A stretch of 32,000 nt of DNA from Nitrosomonas europaea (GCF_900167395.1 NZ_FUWK01000007.1:30001-62000), one strand, 5' to 3'; positions 1-8,593 are shown, numbered from the stretch's first letter. The notes: generated by a model not told the origin, from the sequence alone. Program-made: numbers and translations.

Positions 1-1
1 T

Positions 2-1438
2 GAGCATGAAAAGCTAAGGCCAGTGGAGGTCGCCGCGCCAGCAGAAGCGCTAGATCCAGAACAAAAGAAAGCTTCGGAAGAGCTGGTTTCAATAAACCAA
101 AAAATAGAATCATCCCAAAAGCGTTCACAAGAGATTGCGTTGGAGAACACCGATCTCGCCAAGCGGCAAAAGGCTATCACCAATATCCGCGAACAGTTGA
201 GATTATTTCAGCGCGCATTCGAGCAGGCGCAACAGACTGTCTCCGATGACCTGAAAATTCTGGGTATCACATGGCCTGATTTAGCTGTTATTGATATCAA
301 ACAGCATATCCTTGATGAAAAATCGGCAGAAATTTCCAAGAAACAGGAACAGTTGAAGAGCGAAGCTGAAAAGATTGCCGAAGAGCTGAAGGAGAGTGTC
401 GCATCGCAGCAAAGTTTTACGGCGAAATTGAATGCTCCCCAGCAGCAATTCGAAGCGTACCAGCAACAACTTTCCGAATGGAACAAAAAGCTGGCTTATC
501 TGAAAGGTTCACCTACCGAGCCCGAAACCAAGGTCGGCTTGGAAACTCGTATTGAACAGATCAAGATGTTGCCGGAACAGCACACGGAGTTGGAAGAAAA
601 ACGCTTGCGCCTATCTGGTGAGATTTTCGACACATTAGACGCACAGCGCAAAGCACGCGAAGAGCTTTTCAAACCGGTGCAAGATCTGATCCAGAAAAAC
701 AGCTTGATACGTGAGGATTACAAGCTGCAGTTTCAGGCAACGCTTGCAGCCTCTTCGGAGGCTATCGCCGATCAGTTGTTTGCGCTAATCAAGCAGACTT
801 GGGGGGATTTCCGAGGTCAGGACGAGGCGCCTTCGACGATTAGAAAACTGTTTGACAACTACGATTTGAACTCCAAAGAGGGGGCTCTGGCATTCATCGC
901 CGCCTTGCAGGAAAAGGTTCAAGAAGCCTCAACGCTCTCCGGTGCGACTGTTGGAATTTTTAATCTGGTCAAGAAGGGGCAGTCTGCTATATCAGTATAT
1001 GACTTGATCTTTGGGTTGAACTTCCTTGAGCCGAGATATTCGTTGCTGTTCCAGGACACGCAGATTGAGCAGCTATCGCCCGGTCAACGCGGTGCATTAC
1101 TGCTGATTTTCTATTTGTTGGTGGACAAGGGTAAGACACCGATTATCCTCGACCAGCCAGAAGAAAACTTGGACAATGAGACAGTATTCCGGTTGCTTGT
1201 TCCGGTGCTTTCCGAAGCCAAGAAGCAACGGCAGATCATCATGGTCACGCACAATCCGAACTTGGCGGTTGTGTGCGATGCAGAGCAAATCATCTACGCA
1301 AAGTTTGATCGTGCTGACAATTCAACGGTCAGCTATGAATCCGGCGCTATCGAGAACTCCAATCTGAATGGAATTGTTGTAACAATTCTAGAAGGGACGA
1401 AGCCGGCATTCGACAACCGTTCCGGGAAGTATCACTAA
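2..1438 (+). CDS. SMC/ABC-superfamily coiled-coil ATPase, C-terminal portion (5' end outside window)
   Basis: The frame is open from nt 2: EHEKLRP precedes the GTG at 23 that the ORF track uses. The 478 visible codons lack a Walker A, so the gene must start upstream of the window. About 330 aa of Q/E/K/L-rich, coiled-coil-like sequence comes first. It is followed by LSPGQRG (nt 1073-1093, ABC signature/C-loop), TPIILDQPEENLD (Walker B/D-loop) and IIMVTHNP (H-loop). The TAA stop at 1436-1438 is followed 1 nt later by the mod ATG. Confidence 0.75.
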   Translation, partial: EHEKLRPVEVAAPAEALDPEQKKASEELVSINQKIESSQKRSQEIALENTDLAKRQKAITNIREQLRLFQRAFEQAQQTVSDDLKILGITWPDLAVIDIKQHILDEKSAEISKKQEQLKSEAEKIAEELKESVASQQSFTAKLNAPQQQFEAYQQQLSEWNKKLAYLKGSPTEPETKVGLETRIEQIKMLPEQHTELEEKRLRLSGEIFDTLDAQRKAREELFKPVQDLIQKNSLIREDYKLQFQATLAASSEAIADQLFALIKQTWGDFRGQDEAPSTIRKLFDNYDLNSKEGALAFIAALQEKVQEASTLSGATVGIFNLVKKGQSAISVYDLIFGLNFLEPRYSLLFQDTQIEQLSPGQRGALLLIFYLLVDKGKTPIILDQPEENLDNETVFRLLVPVLSEAKKQRQIIMVTHNPNLAVVCDAEQIIYAKFDRADNSTVSYESGAIENSNLNGIVVTILEGTKPAFDNRSGKYH

Positions 1439-1439
1439 T

Positions 1440-3143
1440 ATGGCAAGTAACCAAAAACTCGAACTCACCTGGATTGGAAAGGAGAAGCGGGCCAAGCTAG
1501 AACCGCGCATCCTGCTCGAAGATCCTGAGAAGTCTTATCATGCCAAGCAGCGTGTTTCGGAGAGTGACGTCTTCGACAACCGGCTGATTTTCGGTGATAA
1601 CCTGCTGGCTCTGAAGGCATTGGAGCAAGAGTTTGCGGGTGAGGTGAAGTGTGTATTTATTGATCCTCCTTACAACACCGGCAGCGCGTTCACACACTAT
1701 GACGACGGGTTGGAGCATTCCATCTGGCTGGGATTGATGCGGGATCGGCTGGAGATCATTAAGCGGCTATTGTCGAATGATGGTTCGTTGTGGATCACAA
1801 TTGATGACAATGAATGCCATTATCTCAAAGTGCTATGCGATGAGATTTTTGGACGAGCCAACTACAAGACTACGATTACATGGCAAAGAAAATACAGCGT
1901 CAGTAATAATTTTCAGGGTATAGCAAGTATCTGCGATTTCGTGCTTGTTTATTCCAAAAGTGAAGCATTCAAAAATAATCTGCTTCCGAGAAGCGAGGAG
2001 TCAGCCGCGCGCTATAACAATCCGGACAATGATCCACGCGGGCCGTGGAAGGCGGTTGACTATCTTAATCAAGCAACGCCAGAAAAGCGCCCAAATCTTT
2101 GCTATGACATCGTTAATCCGAATACGGGTGTTGTCATCAAGAATACAAAAAAGGCTTGGAAATACGATCCCACTACACATCAACGTCACGTTGATGAGAA
2201 GCGAATCTGGTGGGGGCGCGATGGTGGAAATTCAGTTCCTGCCTTGAAGCTATTTTTGTCGGAAGTTCGTGATGGTATGACACCGCATAACTGGTGGTCT
2301 CACGAAGAAGTTGGTCATACCGACGAATCCAAGAAGGAAATGATCGGTCTTTATGGTCCACGAGATGTTTTCGACACTCCAAAGCCGGAACGGCTCCTAA
2401 AGCGCATTCTTGAAATTGCCACCAACCCAGGCGACCTCGTCCTGGACTCCTTCGCCGGTTCCGGCACCACCGGCGCGGTCGCCCACAAAATGGGTCGCCG
2501 CTGGATCATGGTCGAACTGGGCGAGCACTGCCACACCCACATCATTCCGCGCCTGAAGAAGGTCATCGACGGCGAAGACCCGGGCGGCATCACCAATGCG
2601 GTGGACTGGCAAGGCGGCGGTGGCTTCCGTTACTACAGTCTGGCCCCTAGCCTGATTGTGGAGGACCGATGGGGCAATCCGGTTATCAACCCGGAGTACA
2701 ACGCTACGCAATTGTCTGAAGCCTTGTGCAAGCTGGAGGGCTTTACCTACGCTCCATCAGAAACTCGCTGGTGGCAGCAGGGGCATTCCAGCGAACGGGA
2801 CTTTCTCTACGTCACCACCCAGAACCTGTCTGCCTCCCAGTTGCAGGCCTTGTCGGATGAGGTGGGCACGGAGCAAAGCCTGCTGGTGTGCTGCTCGGCC
2901 TTCCACGGCATCAGCGCGGCAGCGGCCGCTGCGCGCTGGCCGAACCTGACACTGAAGAAGATTCCGAAGATGGTGCTGGCCCGTTGCGAATGGGGCCATG
3001 ACGACTACAGCCTGAATGTGGCGAACCTGCCGCTGGCAAAGCCTGAGCCGGAAACACCCGCCTCGCAACCTGCTCCCAAGAAAAAAGGAAAGAAAACCCT
3101 GCCAATGCCAGATTTATTCGGTGATGTGGAGGATGGTGCATGA
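1440..3143 (+). CDS. mod: Type III restriction-modification Mod subunit (beta-class N6-adenine/N4-cytosine DNA methyltransferase)
   Basis: 567-aa ORF. Motif IV (DPPY) is at residues 75-78 and motif I (FAGSG) at residues 338-342, preceded by TPKPERLLKRIL. This is the IV...TRD...I order of beta-class amino-methyltransferases typical of type III Mod. It shares an operon with a type III Res-like gene. Its stop overlaps the next ATG (ATGA at 3140-3143). Confidence 0.9.
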   Translation: MASNQKLELTWIGKEKRAKLEPRILLEDPEKSYHAKQRVSESDVFDNRLIFGDNLLALKALEQEFAGEVKCVFIDPPYNTGSAFTHYDDGLEHSIWLGLMRDRLEIIKRLLSNDGSLWITIDDNECHYLKVLCDEIFGRANYKTTITWQRKYSVSNNFQGIASICDFVLVYSKSEAFKNNLLPRSEESAARYNNPDNDPRGPWKAVDYLNQATPEKRPNLCYDIVNPNTGVVIKNTKKAWKYDPTTHQRHVDEKRIWWGRDGGNSVPALKLFLSEVRDGMTPHNWWSHEEVGHTDESKKEMIGLYGPRDVFDTPKPERLLKRILEIATNPGDLVLDSFAGSGTTGAVAHKMGRRWIMVELGEHCHTHIIPRLKKVIDGEDPGGITNAVDWQGGGGFRYYSLAPSLIVEDRWGNPVINPEYNATQLSEALCKLEGFTYAPSETRWWQQGHSSERDFLYVTTQNLSASQLQALSDEVGTEQSLLVCCSAFHGISAAAAAARWPNLTLKKIPKMVLARCEWGHDDYSLNVANLPLAKPEPETPASQPAPKKKGKKTLPMPDLFGDVEDGA

Positions 3144-4180
3144 GCAAAAAGGTCACAGCTATCCCTCCTGATTACATCGAGTGGCTATCAGACATTAAAT
3201 CTCGTGTAACAGCCGCCCGACAGCGTACGGTGCTGGCGGCCAATGCAGAATTGATTCAGCTCTACTGGCAGATTGGTCGGGATATTCTGCAGCGGCAACA
3301 GTCCGCAAATTGGGGTGACAAGGTGCTTGACCGTTTGGCAAGCGATCTGCGTGCGGCCTTCCCGGAGATGAAGGGCTTTTCGTCCCGCAACCTGAAATAC
3401 ATGCGCTATTTCGCCGAACACTGCCCTCGGCAGGCATTTGGGCAGCAGCCTGCTGCCCAATTACCGTGGTTCCATGTCGTGACCTTGTTGACCAAACTGG
3501 CCGATACCGGGGCGCGCGAGTGGTATGCCCAGCGCGCCATCGCCGAAGGCTGGTCGCGCACCTCGCTGGAACTCAGCATCCGCAATCGTCTGCACGAACG
3601 GCAAGGCCAGGCCGTTACCAATTTCGGGGTTCGCCTGCCCGCGCCACATTCTGAACTGGCGCACGAAGCGCTGAAAGACCCTTACCTGTTCGACTTTCTC
3701 GGCTTGGGCGATAAAGCACACGAGCGTGAAATCGAGAACGCGCTGGTGCGGCACATTACCCAGTTTCTGTTGGAGTTGGGTAATGGATTCGCCTTCGTGG
3801 GTCGTCAGTTCCGGCTGGAGGTGAGCGATAAAGAGTTCTTCATTGATCTGCTTTTCTATCACACGCGGCTCAAATGCTATGTGGTAGTGGAATTGAAAGC
3901 CACCGAATTCAAACCAGAACACGCCGGACAATTGAATTTCTACCTGACGGCGGTGGACAGGCAAGTGAAAGCCCCCGACGACAATCCTACCATCGGCCTG
4001 TTGTTGTGCAAAACCCAGGATCGGCTGGTGGCGGAGTACGCGCTGCATGGTATCGATAAGCCAATTGGCGTAGCCGAATACGAACTGGTGCGCGCTTTAC
4101 CAGAGCGGCTGGTCACCAGTTTGCCGACGGTGGAGGAGTTGGAGAATGAACTTCTGATCGCTCAGGAGACAAAAACATGA
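3140..4180 (+). CDS. DUF1016 / YhcG-family PD-(D/E)xK nuclease-domain protein
   Basis: 346-aa ORF. The N-terminal LIQLYWQIGRDIL...FPEMKGFSSRNLKYMRYF and the C-terminal FFIDLLFYH...YVVVELK (D...ExK) are hallmarks I associate with DUF1016/YhcG proteins. ATGA overlaps occur at both ends (3140-3143, 4177-4180). Confidence 0.85.
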   Translation: MSKKVTAIPPDYIEWLSDIKSRVTAARQRTVLAANAELIQLYWQIGRDILQRQQSANWGDKVLDRLASDLRAAFPEMKGFSSRNLKYMRYFAEHCPRQAFGQQPAAQLPWFHVVTLLTKLADTGAREWYAQRAIAEGWSRTSLELSIRNRLHERQGQAVTNFGVRLPAPHSELAHEALKDPYLFDFLGLGDKAHEREIENALVRHITQFLLELGNGFAFVGRQFRLEVSDKEFFIDLLFYHTRLKCYVVVELKATEFKPEHAGQLNFYLTAVDRQVKAPDDNPTIGLLLCKTQDRLVAEYALHGIDKPIGVAEYELVRALPERLVTSLPTVEELENELLIAQETKT

Positions 4181-5223
4181 GCAAGAAGAAACAAGATGTC
4201 TCTATTGTCCGATCCTCAGCGGCAGAATACCTGACCTTTATTGCCGCCATGGGCGATCAATCGCAATCCGTGGAAATGCGCTATGAGGATGAAAACATCT
4301 GGCTGACGCAGAAGATGATGGCGTCGCTTTACGATGTTACCGTGCCTGCCATCAATCAGCACCTGAAGCGGATTTTTGACGACGGCGAACTACTGCCCGA
4401 GGCAGTTCTTAAGGATTATTTAATAACTGCCGCTGATGGCAAGCAGTACCGCACCAAGCATTACAACCTGCAAGCTATCATTTCTGTTGGCTTCAAGATC
4501 AACAACGTGCGAGCGGTACAGTTTCGCAAATGGGCGGGGCAAATCGTCAAGGACTACACCATCCAGGGCTGGACGATGGATGTGGAGCGCCTGAAAAAAG
4601 GTCACTTGTTCACAGATGAGTACTTTGATCGTCAGCTGGAATATATCCGTGAGATCCGCCTGTCTGAGCGCAAGTTCTACCAAAAGGTAACGGATTTATA
4701 CGCAACGGCATTCGATTACGACAAGGACGCGCTGACCACCCGAGAGTTTTTTGCACTGGTGCAGAATAAATTGCATTGGGCAGTGCATCGACACACGGCA
4801 GCCGAGCTGATTGTGTCACGCGCTGATGCGGGTAGAACGAATATGGGGCTGACGCATTGGGCCGCTGCGCCACAGGGAAAAATTATCAAATCGGATGTTT
4901 CCATCGCCAAGAATTATCTGAATGTGCAAGAGATGGAGTATCTGGAGCGCATTGTGTCGATTTATCTGGATTTTGCTGAACTCCAGGCGATGCGCAAAAT
5001 CCCCATGTCCATGCAGGATTGGGCCAGGCGACTGGATGGGTTCCTGGAGTTCAATGGCAATGAGATATTGATGGGGCCGGGTAAGGTATCGCAGGAGCAG
5101 GCAAAGCTGCACGCTGAAAGTGAGTTCGAGCAATACCGCATCGTGCAGGACAGGTTATTTCAAAGCGATTTTGATCGCTTGTTGTTGCAATTGGAGAGCA
5201 AGAATAAAGAGGAAGGCCAATGA
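4177..5223 (+). CDS. rhuM: RhuM-family protein (function unknown)
   Basis: 348-aa ORF. The N-terminal AAEYLTFIAA...ENIWLTQKMMASLYDVTVPAINQHLKRIFDDGEL resembles RhuM-family proteins (Salmonella SPI-3 RhuM-like), which are often embedded in R-M operons. This assignment is from memory of the family, not from a search. ATGA overlaps occur at both ends. Confidence 0.75.
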   Translation: MSKKKQDVSIVRSSAAEYLTFIAAMGDQSQSVEMRYEDENIWLTQKMMASLYDVTVPAINQHLKRIFDDGELLPEAVLKDYLITAADGKQYRTKHYNLQAIISVGFKINNVRAVQFRKWAGQIVKDYTIQGWTMDVERLKKGHLFTDEYFDRQLEYIREIRLSERKFYQKVTDLYATAFDYDKDALTTREFFALVQNKLHWAVHRHTAAELIVSRADAGRTNMGLTHWAAAPQGKIIKSDVSIAKNYLNVQEMEYLERIVSIYLDFAELQAMRKIPMSMQDWARRLDGFLEFNGNEILMGPGKVSQEQAKLHAESEFEQYRIVQDRLFQSDFDRLLLQLESKNKEEGQ

Positions 5224-7958
5224 ACGCCCGCGTACAAAACCATATCACCGGGCGTTTGTCATTGCGCCCGCCGCAGGCTGAGTCGCTGACACGGTTGAGA
5301 CAGGCACTGGACGCCGCACCGGAAATGCTTGGCCATGAACGCGATGTTTCTGCCATTCTGGCTACGCTGAAGGCCGAGTTTCCGACGCTTGCGGATTTCG
5401 AGCGCGAGTTCCCCTCGCTGTGCTTTGCGCTGGCCACGGGCGTGGGCAAGACGCGCCTGATGGGCGCGTTCATCGCTTACCTGCATCTGGCGCATGGGAT
5501 CAATAACTTCTTCGTGCTCGCTCCCAACCTGACGATCTACAACAAGCTGATCGCGGACTTCACGTGCAATACACCCAAGTATGTGTTCAAGGGCATTGCC
5601 GAGTTCGCCCAGCAACCACCGCTGATCATTACCGGCGATAACTACGACCAGACCGGCGCGGCGGTGGATGATCAGTCGATGGGATTTGCGCACGATGTGC
5701 GTATCAACATTTTCAATATCTCCAAGATCAATTCCGAAGTGCGCGGTGGCAAGGAACCACGTATCAAGCGTATGCGCGAGGTGCTAGGCGACAGCTACTT
5801 CAACCATCTGGCGAATTTGCCCGATCTGGTGTTGTTGATGGATGAATCGCACCGCTATCGTGCCCAAGCCGGCATGCGGGCGATCAACGAGCTTAAACCC
5901 TTGTTTGGTCTGGAGGTGACAGCGACACCGTTTGTGGAATCCAGCAAAGGACCGGTGCCGTTCAAGAACGTGGTGATGGATTATCCGCTGGCGCGGGCGA
6001 TGGAGGATGGCTTCGTCAAGGAACCGGCGGTGGTCACCCAGCGCAACTTCAAGGCCAGCGAGCACACGCCGGAGGAAGTCGAGAAGACCAAGCTGGAAGA
6101 CGGTGTGCGCCTGCACGAAACCACCAAGGTGGAGCTGCTGACCTATGCTCGTGAAAATGGCTTGCAGGTGGTCAAGCCTTTCATGCTGGTGATTGCACGT
6201 GATACGACCCATGCCGGGCAACTGCTGACGTTGCTGGAGTCTGACGCTTTTTTTGATGGCCGCTATGCGGGCAAAGTGATTCAGGTCGATTCCAGCCAAA
6301 CAGGTGCTCAAGAGGAAGAAATGATCTCACGCCTGCTGGCCGTAGAAAGTGTGGACGAGCCGACTGAAATCGTGATTCACGTCAACATGCTCAAGGAAGG
6401 TTGGGATGTAACCAATCTCTATACCATCGTGCCGCTGCGCGCAGCCAATGCGCGCACGTTGATCGAGCAGAGCATCGGGCGCGGGTTGCGGCTGCCCTAT
6501 GGAAAACGTACCGGTGTGGCGGCAGTGGATCGTCTGAACATCGTCGCTCATGATAAGTTTCAGGAAATCATCGACGAAGCCAATCGTGGCGATTCGCCGA
6601 TCCGGCTGAAGCAGGTCATCCTCGATGCACCGAGCGCCGACGACAAGAAGGTCAGCGTACAAGTTGAGCCCGGAGTAGCGGCTCGCCTCGGTTTGACGGA
6701 TGCGCTGATCGTGCAGATCGATGCAGCCGGTACGCCTGATGAGTTGGTATCCAACACCGCACCGACACCCGTGTTTACCACCGAGGCCGAGAAGCAGGCG
6801 GCGCGTGTGGTGATGGAAGTGATCGGCAAGTATGAGGTCAGGCGCGATCTGGTGCCGACCAGCAGTGCGTTGCTCAAGCCGGAGGTGCAATCGGTACTTC
6901 TGGCGGAGGTGGCGGAGCTTTTGCGCCCGATGCAGGGCAGTTTGCTGGCAGGCATCGATGAAGCTGCGCCAACATTGGATTTGTCTACCATAGTGGCGAA
7001 GACGACTGAAATCGTGGTGCAGCAGACTATCGACATCCCGCGCATCGCCGTGGTGCCGAAAGGCGAAGTGACGACAGGTTTTCATCTGTTCACGCTGGAT
7101 GTGAGTCAGCTTTACCTGCAGCCAGGTGAGCACGAAATTGTCGGCCAGATGCTGCGTACCAATGAGCAGTTTACGCTGGCGGCAGAGATCGGATTGAAGG
7201 AGCAGCGCCCGGAAGACTATATCGTTCATGCGCTGGTGGATTTCGACGATATCGATTACTTCACCCACGCCGGATTGCTCTACGACCTCGCAGGGCAGAT
7301 GGTGCAGCATTTGCGTAGCTATCTGTCAGAGGACGAGGCCACCAGCATTCTGGATCGGGATCGCCGTCTGATTGCGCGGGAAATTCATGCCCAGATGATG
7401 GCCCACTTCTGGGAGAAGGCAACGGATTATGAGGTGCAAGTCAGTCGCGGTTTTACGGAACTCAAGCCTTGCAACTACACGGCTGTGGCGGATCAGACAC
7501 CGTGCCATTTTCGCGAAACCGTGGAGGATGTGGGACGCATCAAGCAGATGCTGTTCGGCGGATTTACCAAGTGTCTGTACCCGCTGCAGAAGTTCGATTC
7601 GGATACGGAGCGGCGCTTCGCCGTCATCCTCGAACGCGATGCTGACAAGTGGTTCAAGCCCGCGAAGGGGCAGTTTCAGCTTTACTATAAGCTGGGTACC
7701 GAACAACCGGAGTATGTTCCTGATTTCGTAGTCGAAACGGAGTCGATCATCCTGATGGCCGAGACCAAGAAGCGGGATGATCTGAAAACGGGAGAGGTGG
7801 AAGCCAAGGCAGCTGCCGCCGTGCAATGGTGCAGGCATGCTTCGGACTTCACGGTGAGCGTCGGTGGCAAGCCGTGGAAGTATCTGCTGGTACCCCACGA
7901 CGAGATCAATGAATCGAGACAGCTTACCGACTTCCTCCGCTTTGCGGTGAAGGGATGA
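5220..7958 (+). CDS. res: Type III restriction enzyme Res subunit (SF2 helicase with C-terminal PD-(D/E)xK endonuclease)
   Basis: 912-aa ORF. Helicase motifs are LATGVGKT (I), LLMDESHRY (II, DExH-like), EVTATP (III) and QSIGRGLRLPYG (VI). The C-terminal YVPDFVV...LMAETKK fits a PD...ExK nuclease motif, as in EcoP15I-type Res. Same operon as mod. Confidence 0.9.
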   Translation: MNARVQNHITGRLSLRPPQAESLTRLRQALDAAPEMLGHERDVSAILATLKAEFPTLADFEREFPSLCFALATGVGKTRLMGAFIAYLHLAHGINNFFVLAPNLTIYNKLIADFTCNTPKYVFKGIAEFAQQPPLIITGDNYDQTGAAVDDQSMGFAHDVRINIFNISKINSEVRGGKEPRIKRMREVLGDSYFNHLANLPDLVLLMDESHRYRAQAGMRAINELKPLFGLEVTATPFVESSKGPVPFKNVVMDYPLARAMEDGFVKEPAVVTQRNFKASEHTPEEVEKTKLEDGVRLHETTKVELLTYARENGLQVVKPFMLVIARDTTHAGQLLTLLESDAFFDGRYAGKVIQVDSSQTGAQEEEMISRLLAVESVDEPTEIVIHVNMLKEGWDVTNLYTIVPLRAANARTLIEQSIGRGLRLPYGKRTGVAAVDRLNIVAHDKFQEIIDEANRGDSPIRLKQVILDAPSADDKKVSVQVEPGVAARLGLTDALIVQIDAAGTPDELVSNTAPTPVFTTEAEKQAARVVMEVIGKYEVRRDLVPTSSALLKPEVQSVLLAEVAELLRPMQGSLLAGIDEAAPTLDLSTIVAKTTEIVVQQTIDIPRIAVVPKGEVTTGFHLFTLDVSQLYLQPGEHEIVGQMLRTNEQFTLAAEIGLKEQRPEDYIVHALVDFDDIDYFTHAGLLYDLAGQMVQHLRSYLSEDEATSILDRDRRLIAREIHAQMMAHFWEKATDYEVQVSRGFTELKPCNYTAVADQTPCHFRETVEDVGRIKQMLFGGFTKCLYPLQKFDSDTERRFAVILERDADKWFKPAKGQFQLYYKLGTEQPEYVPDFVVETESIILMAETKKRDDLKTGEVEAKAAAAVQWCRHASDFTVSVGGKPWKYLLVPHDEINESRQLTDFLRFAVKG

Positions 7959-8044
7959 TGATGTTTTTCTGTGAACAGAATGAATGAAGGCGCCGGCTTC
8001 AGAATCAGTCCGGATGATTGTCTGGCTTGTTGACAGAAAAAGTC

Positions 8045-8593
8045 TTAGTTAACCAGGGAATTGCGTGATGGATAGGTCACTGCACCTGACGGTTGGGGGC
8101 AGGCACTTTCCGTTAAACGGGCGATTTCTATTTTGTCATGCCCCATCAGGTGAAAAACGGTTTCACCGTGCATCAGCAGGTAATCAGAAATGATGCGACG
8201 ATGGCAGCGCCACCAGACAGCCTCGGAACACATGATTGCACATCTGCGTTTTCGTCCCAGAGCGATCAGCTTGGCAAGACCCTCGTGAAAAGTATCACTC
8301 AGTGCGTAATCAGCAAAATTGTGGAAGCTCTGATTTTCCCAGAAACCATTTACATTGGACGATACCGTTTTGGATCTGGCACGTAAACCACCCAGTTGCG
8401 GGATATGTTCGTAACTGATTTGGAATGCAGCCAGGCTGTCGGGAAATGTCTCCAGGTTGTACTGCGGATTGGTGCGTGACCGCGGAACGGTACGTACATC
8501 CACAACCTGTTCCACTTCTGCTGCATGCAGTAAGCCGATGAACTCTTCCAGCGTGCGGGTAGAGTGCCCGATGGTGTAAAAGGGCGGATTCAT
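8045..8593 (-). CDS. DUF488-family protein
   Basis: 182-aa ORF. FYTIGHSTRTLEEF...VVDVRTVPRS and AIMCSEAVWWRCHRRIISDYL are characteristic DUF488 motifs. Confidence 0.85.
   Translation of the reverse strand: MNPPFYTIGHSTRTLEEFIGLLHAAEVEQVVDVRTVPRSRTNPQYNLETFPDSLAAFQISYEHIPQLGGLRARSKTVSSNVNGFWENQSFHNFADYALSDTFHEGLAKLIALGRKRRCAIMCSEAVWWRCHRRIISDYLLMHGETVFHLMGHDKIEIARLTESACPQPSGAVTYPSRNSLVN

Follow-up and report, generated by a model that had tools for sequence, protein, structure and literature searches.

Probable embedding of swappable candidate defense genes in an SNF2-linked, type III-like restriction-modification locus of Nitrosomonas europaea

Six co-oriented genes between pilQ and a DUF488 gene

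We analyzed a candidate defense locus at the start of a 32,000-nucleotide (nt) stretch of DNA from Nitrosomonas europaea (GCF_900167395.1 NZ_FUWK01000007.1:30001-62000; hereafter the window, on which positions are counted). The locus encodes a methyltransferase (Mod) and a restriction enzyme (Res) resembling those of type III restriction-modification (R-M) systems, and a comparison that took in ~160 related loci overall suggests that the two share a core with an SNF2 helicase, the remaining genes being likely cargo.

Five plus-strand open reading frames (ORFs) occupy positions 2-7958. The first, open at the window start (2/23 to 1438), is the 3' part of trlF and encodes residues 550-1027 of a 1027-residue protein, namely its coiled coil and C-terminal ABC ATPase lobe. 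It is followed by mod (1440-3143), which encodes a beta-class N6-adenine methyltransferase of the type III kind; by a DUF1016/YhcG gene (3140-4180), of a PD-(D/E)xK nuclease family; by a RhuM-family gene (4177-5223); and by res (5220-7958), whose product combines an SF2 (DExH) helicase and, at the C terminus, a PD-(D/E)xK nuclease. A single T separates the trlF stop codon TAA from the mod start codon ATG (1436-1442; CAC TAA T ATG). The other three junctions are ATGA overlaps, formed by the mod stop and DUF1016 start (3140-3143; GC-ATGA-GC), the DUF1016 stop and RhuM start (4177-4180; AC-ATGA-GC), and the RhuM stop and res start (5220-5223; CA-ATGA-AC). Since all five ORFs are at least 346 codons long, have strong family matches, and retain intact catalytic motifs, they are not chance features.

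An initial annotation of this DNA had described five translationally coupled genes. ORF calling and reading of the sequence bear out their coordinates and junctions, and profile matches agree with the family calls that it made (ABC/SMC-type ATPase, type III Mod, DUF1016, RhuM, and type III Res). The unit is nevertheless longer than proposed. The 10 kb of upstream sequence was recovered through an exact look-up of the Mod protein, the identical public contigs including AL954747.1 (N. europaea ATCC 19718), in which the locus lies near 2.49-2.51 Mb. Read from 5' to 3', these contigs carry pilN-O-P-Q, a gene for a 965-residue SNF2 helicase, and the full trlF (1027 residues). The SNF2 gene is co-oriented with the other five, and its stop codon overlaps the trlF start (TAATG) outside the window. 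Thus, the coupling claimed for the unit stands, whereas the count of five does not: the first ORF is a partial protein, SNF2 lies upstream of the window, and the operon consists of six genes between pilQ and a convergent DUF488 gene, with ordinary chromosomal genes, including the bio operon, downstream.

Both core proteins of the window carry the features expected of type III subunits. Mod matches PF01555 (2e-47) and the PADLOC model MTase_III (2.7e-218), and in the PDB it matches the type III Mod of H. pylori (6k0w, 2e-44) and EcoP15I Mod (4zcf_A, 1e-30). Its DPPY motif (residue 75; 1662-1673) precedes FAGSG (residue 338; 2451-2465), which is the beta-class order of type III enzymes: motif IV (DPPY) comes first, then the target-recognition region, then motif I (FxGxG). 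Res matches PF04851 (ResIII) and the PADLOC model REase_III (1.1e-213). It has the Walker A, DExH, and motif VI elements of an SF2 helicase, with GVGKT at residue 74 (5439-5453), DESH at residue 208 (5841-5852), and QSIGRGLR at residue 417, together with the fused PD-(D/E)xK nuclease that is typical of type III Res (PD...ETK, residues 834-850; 7719-7769). In an alignment, the catalytic residues were invariant among 9 diverse homologues. Canonical type III R-M systems consist of two genes, with mod directly followed by res, whereas 2 kb and two genes lie between them here.

The SNF2 helicase is best matched by DrmD models (PADLOC, 6.7e-198; NF038318, 663 bits), although the match to NF038318 (DrmD_b) falls under the cutoff of 950 and covers the helicase core alone. 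Further matches were obtained with the BrxHI/BrxHII models (PADLOC PDLC02500, 7.5e-73) and HmaA (1.6e-50), and with RapA in the PDB (3e-36).

Full-length TrlF scores 673 bits against NCBIfam NF045780 over model positions 1-944, well above the cutoff of 350; the fragment in the window matches positions 491-944 of 944 (6.7e-98), and NCBI assigns the identical protein to the TrlF family. TrlF also matches PF13304 and PF02463 and, weakly, Ppl, AriA, and mad3, and a motif scan located the ABC signature LSPGQ (1073-1087) and the Walker B motif IILDQPE (1142-1162), both on the plus strand. In the 330 N-terminal residues, which are encoded outside the window, D16, H18, H20, E95, D274, and H276 are invariant in 28 homologues. 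The predicted structure of this domain (pLDDT 86.9) best matches PHP domains, namely those of RNase AM/TrpH, of PHP phosphoesterases, and of the Pol III alpha subunit, with a best value of 4e-8 for RNase AM, the top PDB match, and TM-scores of 0.35-0.55. These models predict that TrlF joins a PHP phosphoesterase or nuclease to a coiled-coil ABC ATPase. A literature search for TrlF and the origin of its name found no paper, the term returning unrelated uses, and PADLOC-DB v2 does not treat TrlF as a system of its own.

As for the two genes between mod and res, the DUF1016 protein matches PF17761 plus PF06250 (DUF1016_N and YhcG_C; 3e-66) and the PADLOC candidate PDC-S02 (4.6e-158), and a motif scan placed an ID...ELK motif at ~3842-3898 on the plus strand. 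RhuM matches PF13310 (3e-102) and the PADLOC candidate PDC-S05 (2.3e-145). The matches to both candidate models are full length, and these models derive from genes that lie inside BREX, DISARM, or type I R-M systems (10.1101/2024.01.29.577857). By sequence, no PDB relatives of either protein were found; structure prediction for RhuM gave a pLDDT of 38.7 from a shallow alignment (at least 83% identity).

Probable core and cargo in related loci

A metagenome scan queried with nine aligned Res proteins found at least 496 confirmed relatives, and the sample analyzed comprises 80 loci in which Res is 57-88% identical to the query. Mod immediately precedes Res in 67 of 79 of these Res-seeded loci. 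An SNF2 gene was present in 37 of the 41 loci with enough upstream sequence, always upstream, on the same strand, and at a fixed 5' position, and it was likewise present in all six plasmid contexts examined in which Res is at least 43% identical. Its identity co-varies with that of Res between loci, and it abuts Mod where cargo is absent. Given this frequency, fixed position, co-variation, and direct abutment, mod, res, and the SNF2 gene appear to make up a three-gene core; co-occurrence, the basis for this view, supports SNF2 as a conserved extra partner of the other two. The idea that an accessory ATPase elaborates a type III core therefore needs amending, in that the conserved partner is the upstream SNF2 helicase and not the ATPase.

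The plasmids illustrate how much the rest of the locus varies. A Ketogulonicigenium plasmid carries a bare, contiguous SNF2-Mod-Res triad, and a Sphingopyxis plasmid has a single hypothetical gene between SNF2 and Mod-Res. More elaborate arrangements were found on a Salmonella IncFIB plasmid (helix-turn-helix [HTH] gene-SNF2-IS256-Abi-hypothetical-Mod-Res), a Deinococcus plasmid (SNF2-AIPR-HTH-hypothetical-VapC-Mod-hypothetical-Res), and an Aeromonas plasmid (WYL-SNF2-AAA ATPase-DUF4276-Mod-insertion sequence [IS]-Res). In addition, SNF2 homologues on Cupriavidus and Klebsiella plasmids (44-51% identical) head HTH-SNF2-methyltransferase-DEAD/DEAH helicase triads. The small HTH gene found 5' of SNF2 on the Salmonella, Klebsiella, and Cupriavidus plasmids is absent in N. 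europaea.

In the Res-seeded loci, the SNF2-Mod gap was filled in 37 of 37 cases, by TrlF in 4 and by AIPR in 11, and the Mod-Res gap was empty in 24 of 67, held DUF1016 in 9, and held RhuM in 8. No locus of this sample had DUF1016 and RhuM together in the Mod-Res gap. Cargo elsewhere included published, named defense systems and PADLOC candidates, among them Iet (IetA plus IetS), Kiwa (KwaA plus KwaB), an OLD nuclease, GmrSD/HEC-06, type IIG R-M, SoFic, and AIPR/AbiU-like proteins. Further cargo consisted of a 772-residue LmuB-like ABC ATPase, GHKL/paraMORC-like ATPases, Schlafen-AlbA2, and a zeta-like kinase. The same gaps in TrlF-seeded loci also held AIPR/AbiU-like proteins, a 665-residue GHKL ATPase, DUF2130, HTH-M78 peptidase, and Bro-N/PDC-S13. 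Among the uncharacterized genes that recur between SNF2 and Mod are those for this 665-residue GHKL ATPase, which has no PADLOC match (L015:14991-16988; L numbers denote loci of the comparison), for the 772-residue SMC/LmuB-like ABC ATPase (L090:3625-5943), and for a DUF2130 protein (L029:8664-9956); following the logic of embedding, we regard these three as candidate defense genes.

Closely related cores with different contents show that the contents change. In one pair, Res is 96% and SNF2 86% identical, and the cargo is IetA/IetS in one locus (L086) and TrlF plus AIPR in the other (L033). In a second pair, with Res 93% and SNF2 96% identical, one locus (L106) has genes of 366 and 228 residues plus RhuM, and the other (L071) has TrlF plus a GHKL gene. 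Nucleotide homology within these pairs continues to the SNF2 stop codon, is lost, and returns within the 3' portion of mod as well as in res, and the presence or absence of RhuM falls exactly between mod and res. The stop/start overlaps are retained throughout: an ATGA that overlaps the res start ends 23 of 25 DUF1016 or RhuM inserts in other loci, and in most such inserts the start likewise overlaps the mod stop, by 4 nt. Because 23 of 25 inserts share it, ATGA coupling is a general trait of the gap rather than a sign of a special five-gene machine. Same-slot inserts are interchangeable between near-identical cores.

A Neisseria sp. metagenome contig contains RhuM (85% identical) and DUF1016 (75%) in the reverse of the order seen in N. 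europaea, separated by a 95-residue ORF (L180:8041-8328). The first 20 residues of this ORF correspond to the Res N terminus and the rest to the last 82 residues of Mod, so that it looks like the recombination scar of two fused Mod-cargo-Res units. No comparable Res-Mod fusion scar was found in N. europaea.

Relatives of the cargo also occur outside this host. On plasmids, the nearest homologue of the DUF1016 protein in the window (71% identical) lies inside a type I R-M operon (hsdM-hsdS-DUF1016-LprI-hsdR), and an Aeromonas type I operon contains both families (hsdM-DUF1016-hsdS-RhuM-hsdR), in keeping with reports of DUF1016 and RhuM next to or inside R-M operons (PMC9881135, PMC3710099). As for TrlF, among the 30 of 65 plasmid matches listed, none is in the 34 Res records; on a Vibrio cholerae IncC plasmid its neighbors are hypothetical genes and IS elements, with no SNF2, Mod, or Res.

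Interpretation and surroundings of the locus

Collectively, these data make it likely that the locus consists of an SNF2-Mod-Res core, with type III-like Mod and Res and a DrmD/BrxHII/RapA-like SNF2 helicase, plus independent, swappable cargo in two gaps: TrlF between SNF2 and Mod, and DUF1016 (first) and RhuM (second) between Mod and Res. The initial annotation had described a composite defense locus with a type III-like core, its mod and res being separated by two accessory genes, a description that we retain, and had left open whether one system or nested modules were involved. The comparative data decide for nested modules, because 93-96% identical Res cores hold different cargo, TrlF occupies 4 of 37 SNF2-Mod slots, TrlF relatives stand alone on plasmids, and DUF1016 and RhuM relatives are found inside type I R-M.

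In such an arrangement, Mod would methylate the host's own recognition sites, and Mod plus Res would cut unmethylated incoming DNA following ATP-driven communication along the DNA, with SNF2 as a putative accessory motor, as is thought of its relatives in DISARM, ARMADA, and type 3 BREX. All three cargo genes would be co-transcribed with the R-M genes and coupled to them in translation, and they may add separate layers of defense: a PHP nuclease gated by an ATPase, another nuclease, and a putative toxin. Related loci appear to swap cargo through recombination within the conserved core genes on either side, and the exchange leaves intact the stop/start overlaps by which translation of res is tied to the preceding gene.

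A bolder combination of these ideas seems to us less likely than not. The SNF2-Mod-Res triad would then be an unrecognized, widespread three-component restriction class linking type III R-M to the SNF2 plus methyltransferase modules of DISARM, ARMADA, and BREX type 3; the SNF2 motor would be required for restriction, the two slots would be a dedicated site of cargo exchange, and some cargo lineages, namely the TrlF and RhuM of this locus, would serve as obligate guards of their host, a role that PrrC has in type I R-M.

Several points weigh against independent cargo on a three-gene core. We infer the defense activity of the triad, TrlF, DUF1016, and RhuM from sequence, and PDC-S02 and PDC-S05 are candidate, not validated, systems. 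The match of Res to EcoP15I Res is weak (1.3e-6), transfer of whole cassettes could inflate the apparent linkage of SNF2, and genes of the related loci were called with a simple ORF picker, so that small inserts classed as "other" may be spurious. A further point is the distribution of the nearest cargo relatives. In a TrlF-seeded survey of one genome per species (74 loci, with ORFs called and compared with the six proteins), TrlF proteins at least 60% identical lay between SNF2 and Mod...Res in 30 of 30 evaluable loci, this subclade being found inside SNF2...Res loci alone. At 50-60% identity, 2 of 17 evaluable loci were embedded and one more had Res without SNF2; below 50%, 0 of 3 were. In the same vein, the closest RhuM homologues looked up (83-86% identical) are all in the Mod-Res slot, including three at 85-86% identity in Azotobacter, Alcaligenes, and Neisseria SNF2-Mod-Res loci. 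The TrlF and RhuM lineages of this locus may thus be host dependent rather than autonomous.

Such dependence is the essence of the alternative that survives best, in which the cargo is swappable but not autonomous: by analogy with PrrC/EcoprrI, TrlF and/or RhuM would guard the host R-M system, silenced by Mod/Res (or SNF2) and freed when a phage inhibits restriction. Besides the restricted distribution of both lineages, stop/start overlaps are kept on either side of nearly every insert, a multilevel role of RhuM was proposed by Anantharaman et al., and there is a precedent in PrrC, which is embedded almost exclusively in type I R-M (Payne et al., 10.1101/2024.01.29.577857). Whole-cassette transfer, however, explains the host-restricted distribution equally well, and more distant relatives of TrlF, DUF1016, and RhuM occur in other hosts or alone. 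We consider this guard role rather unlikely for the present cargo.

It is distinctly improbable that the locus is an ordinary two-gene type III R-M system in a defense island, with SNF2, TrlF, DUF1016, and RhuM as unrelated neighbors. PADLOC and Pfam do class Mod and Res as type III, 4 of the 41 evaluable loci have no recognizable SNF2, and a Gordonia plasmid carries a distant Mod-Res pair alone, without SNF2 (Res 34% identical), but chance neighborhood would hardly account for the same-strand SNF2 gene upstream in the other 37 loci and the six plasmid contexts, nor for its fixed position, its co-variation with Res, and its abutment on Mod in cargo-free loci. Finally, that a single integrated, unnamed defense system requires every one of the five (six) genes, with the ATPase, DUF1016, and RhuM as subunits or regulators of the restriction complex, is very improbable indeed: translational coupling is unbroken over all junctions and the closer TrlF relatives always occur in this context (30 of 30), yet bare triads exist, unrelated genes fill the same slots of cores with 93-96% identical Res, TrlF, DUF1016, and RhuM occupy a minority of slots (the last two never together in the sample), and cargo families recur in type I R-M operons.

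With regard to the surroundings of the locus, the six-gene unit begins 100 nt past pilQ, and the gap contains a GC-rich hairpin, AAGGGGGCTTGATATAGCCCCCTT (L001:3918-4019). This pilQ-side hairpin was the sole exception in a promoter and terminator scan across the operon, which otherwise gave no more signals than shuffled sequence. At the other end, the DUF488 gene (8045-8593, minus strand) lies 86 nt downstream of res and is convergent with it. Its product matches PDC-M45B, a component of a PADLOC multi-gene candidate (1.3e-27), and the gene adjoins the locus in all assemblies having the identical protein; an empty site was sought by means of this protein, and all contigs found have the locus. 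No att-like direct repeats were found around the six genes, and neither an integrase nor a flanking repeat was seen at the N. europaea locus. In Azotobacter and Alcaligenes, res is followed immediately by an integrase gene (L178:10859-11722 and L182:10856-11719), and in these hosts an integrative element may therefore carry the entire triad together with its cargo. The window contained no tRNA genes and no Rfam families, and megablast of positions 1-8000 against E. coli genomes gave no match.

Other assemblies of the N. europaea locus differ in places. TrlF is split into 365 plus 625 residues in L002/L169, where Res is shortened to 878 residues, and into 489 plus 514 residues in L166, where the DUF1016 gene encodes 351 residues with no Pfam match; these differences could be assembly errors or true decay in culture. 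Farther along the window, a signaling cluster (24257-26324) comprises a GGDEF gene (24257-25075), a short EAL-like ORF (25082-25771), and an HDOD ORF (25596-26324). The latter two overlap by ~175 nt, each matching part of its domain only, and may represent a frameshifted or mis-started gene; GC content falls to 0.45 just downstream of the cluster.

Comparison with known systems

The locus shares with type III R-M of the EcoP15I type a beta-class Mod with DPPY before FxGxG, a Res with DExH and C-terminal PD-(D/E)xK domains, the placement of mod upstream of res, the coupling of res translation to the preceding gene, and best PDB matches to type III subunits. It differs in that Res is remote from EcoP15I Res, an SNF2 protein is a third partner in this clade, and two genes are inserted between mod and res. 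Type III R-M is further defined by cleavage that takes Mod and Res together, ATP, and two unmethylated sites in inverse orientation, and by methylation of a single strand. A search of the literature found nothing that names or describes SNF2-Mod-Res, an absence that is no proof of absence. GHKL genes in type III-like and in SNF2-containing R-M operons were described as separate classes, with the triad absent, in the paraMORC paper (PMC2292703). Why a type III-like enzyme should retain an SNF2 partner is a question that the locus raises. In N. europaea, the locus is a likely barrier to transformation.

A RapA-like SNF2 protein combined with a methyltransferase and a helicase-nuclease effector is also found in class 1 DISARM (DrmD plus DrmMI), ARMADA (ArmA plus ArmB), and type 3 BREX (BrxHII plus PglX). 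Unlike these modules, the present locus has no DrmA, DrmB, DrmC, or YprA/DUF1998 helicase, and its Mod is of PF01555 and neither PglX- nor DrmMI-like. Class 1 DISARM, defined by the helicase DrmA, DrmB (DUF1998), and DrmC (PLD) with DrmD and DrmMI, was rejected as an assignment, as the DrmD-like gene stands by itself and there is no DUF1998 or PLD gene between pilQ and DUF488. ARMADA has a YprA-like helicase with DUF1998, a Vsr nuclease, and a PglX-like methyltransferase (10.1101/2025.09.15.676423), and it was set aside because Res has no DUF1998 and Mod belongs to PF01555. Hma is defined by the DUF499 ATPase HmaC, the SNF2 helicase HmaA, and the methyltransferase HmaB (PMC8565338, PMC12839542). 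In our case, TrlF is of the ABC/SMC type, without an HmaC match and not DUF499, the HmaA match of the helicase (1.6e-50) compares with 6.7e-198 for DrmD, and no HmaB model appears among the 25 of 63 Mod matches listed, every one of them a model for a type III, type II, or orphan methyltransferase. MADS requires mad6, mad7, and mad8, and the sole match was a weak one to mad3 (3.9e-15) through the ABC ATPase domain.

The cargo ATPase has likenesses of its own. Ppl is reportedly a single-gene defense made of PHP and ABC ATPase domains (Gao et al. 2020), and the predicted plan of TrlF, an N-terminal PHP phosphoesterase followed by a coiled-coil ABC ATPase, resembles it. TrlF is nonetheless a separate NCBIfam family, and it was not assigned to Ppl: despite the shared architecture, it scores 98.6 bits against NF042955, for which the cutoff is 1000. 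The anticodon nucleases PrrC (EcoprrI) and RloC of type I R-M are also ABC-ATPase effectors whose genes are nested in, and co-expressed with, an R-M operon; unlike them, TrlF has a PHP rather than a HEPN nuclease, and its host is type III-like.

The layout had been said not to be a named system, and this holds for the exact gene order, although the embedding of defense genes in DNA-modification systems has already been described. Starting from "guilt-by-embedding" in Hma, BREX, DISARM, and type I R-M, Payne et al. predicted 145 new defense candidates and confirmed seven systems (10.1101/2024.01.29.577857). The pattern is therefore known, whereas the SNF2-Mod-Res triad is outside the four host types mined there and was not previously mined for it. 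The SNF2-associated type III-like R-M clade thus offers a further embedding host with two well-defined cargo slots, and TrlF, the 665-residue GHKL ATPase, the 772-residue SMC-like ATPase, DUF2130, DUF1016, and RhuM can be ranked as candidates for new defense functions. The likeness to the loci of that screen lies in the variable, same-strand defense genes between DNA-modification genes, in the presence of PDC-S02 and PDC-S05, which come from it, and in the named systems Iet, Kiwa, OLD, GmrSD, and SoFic, which are cargo in this clade.

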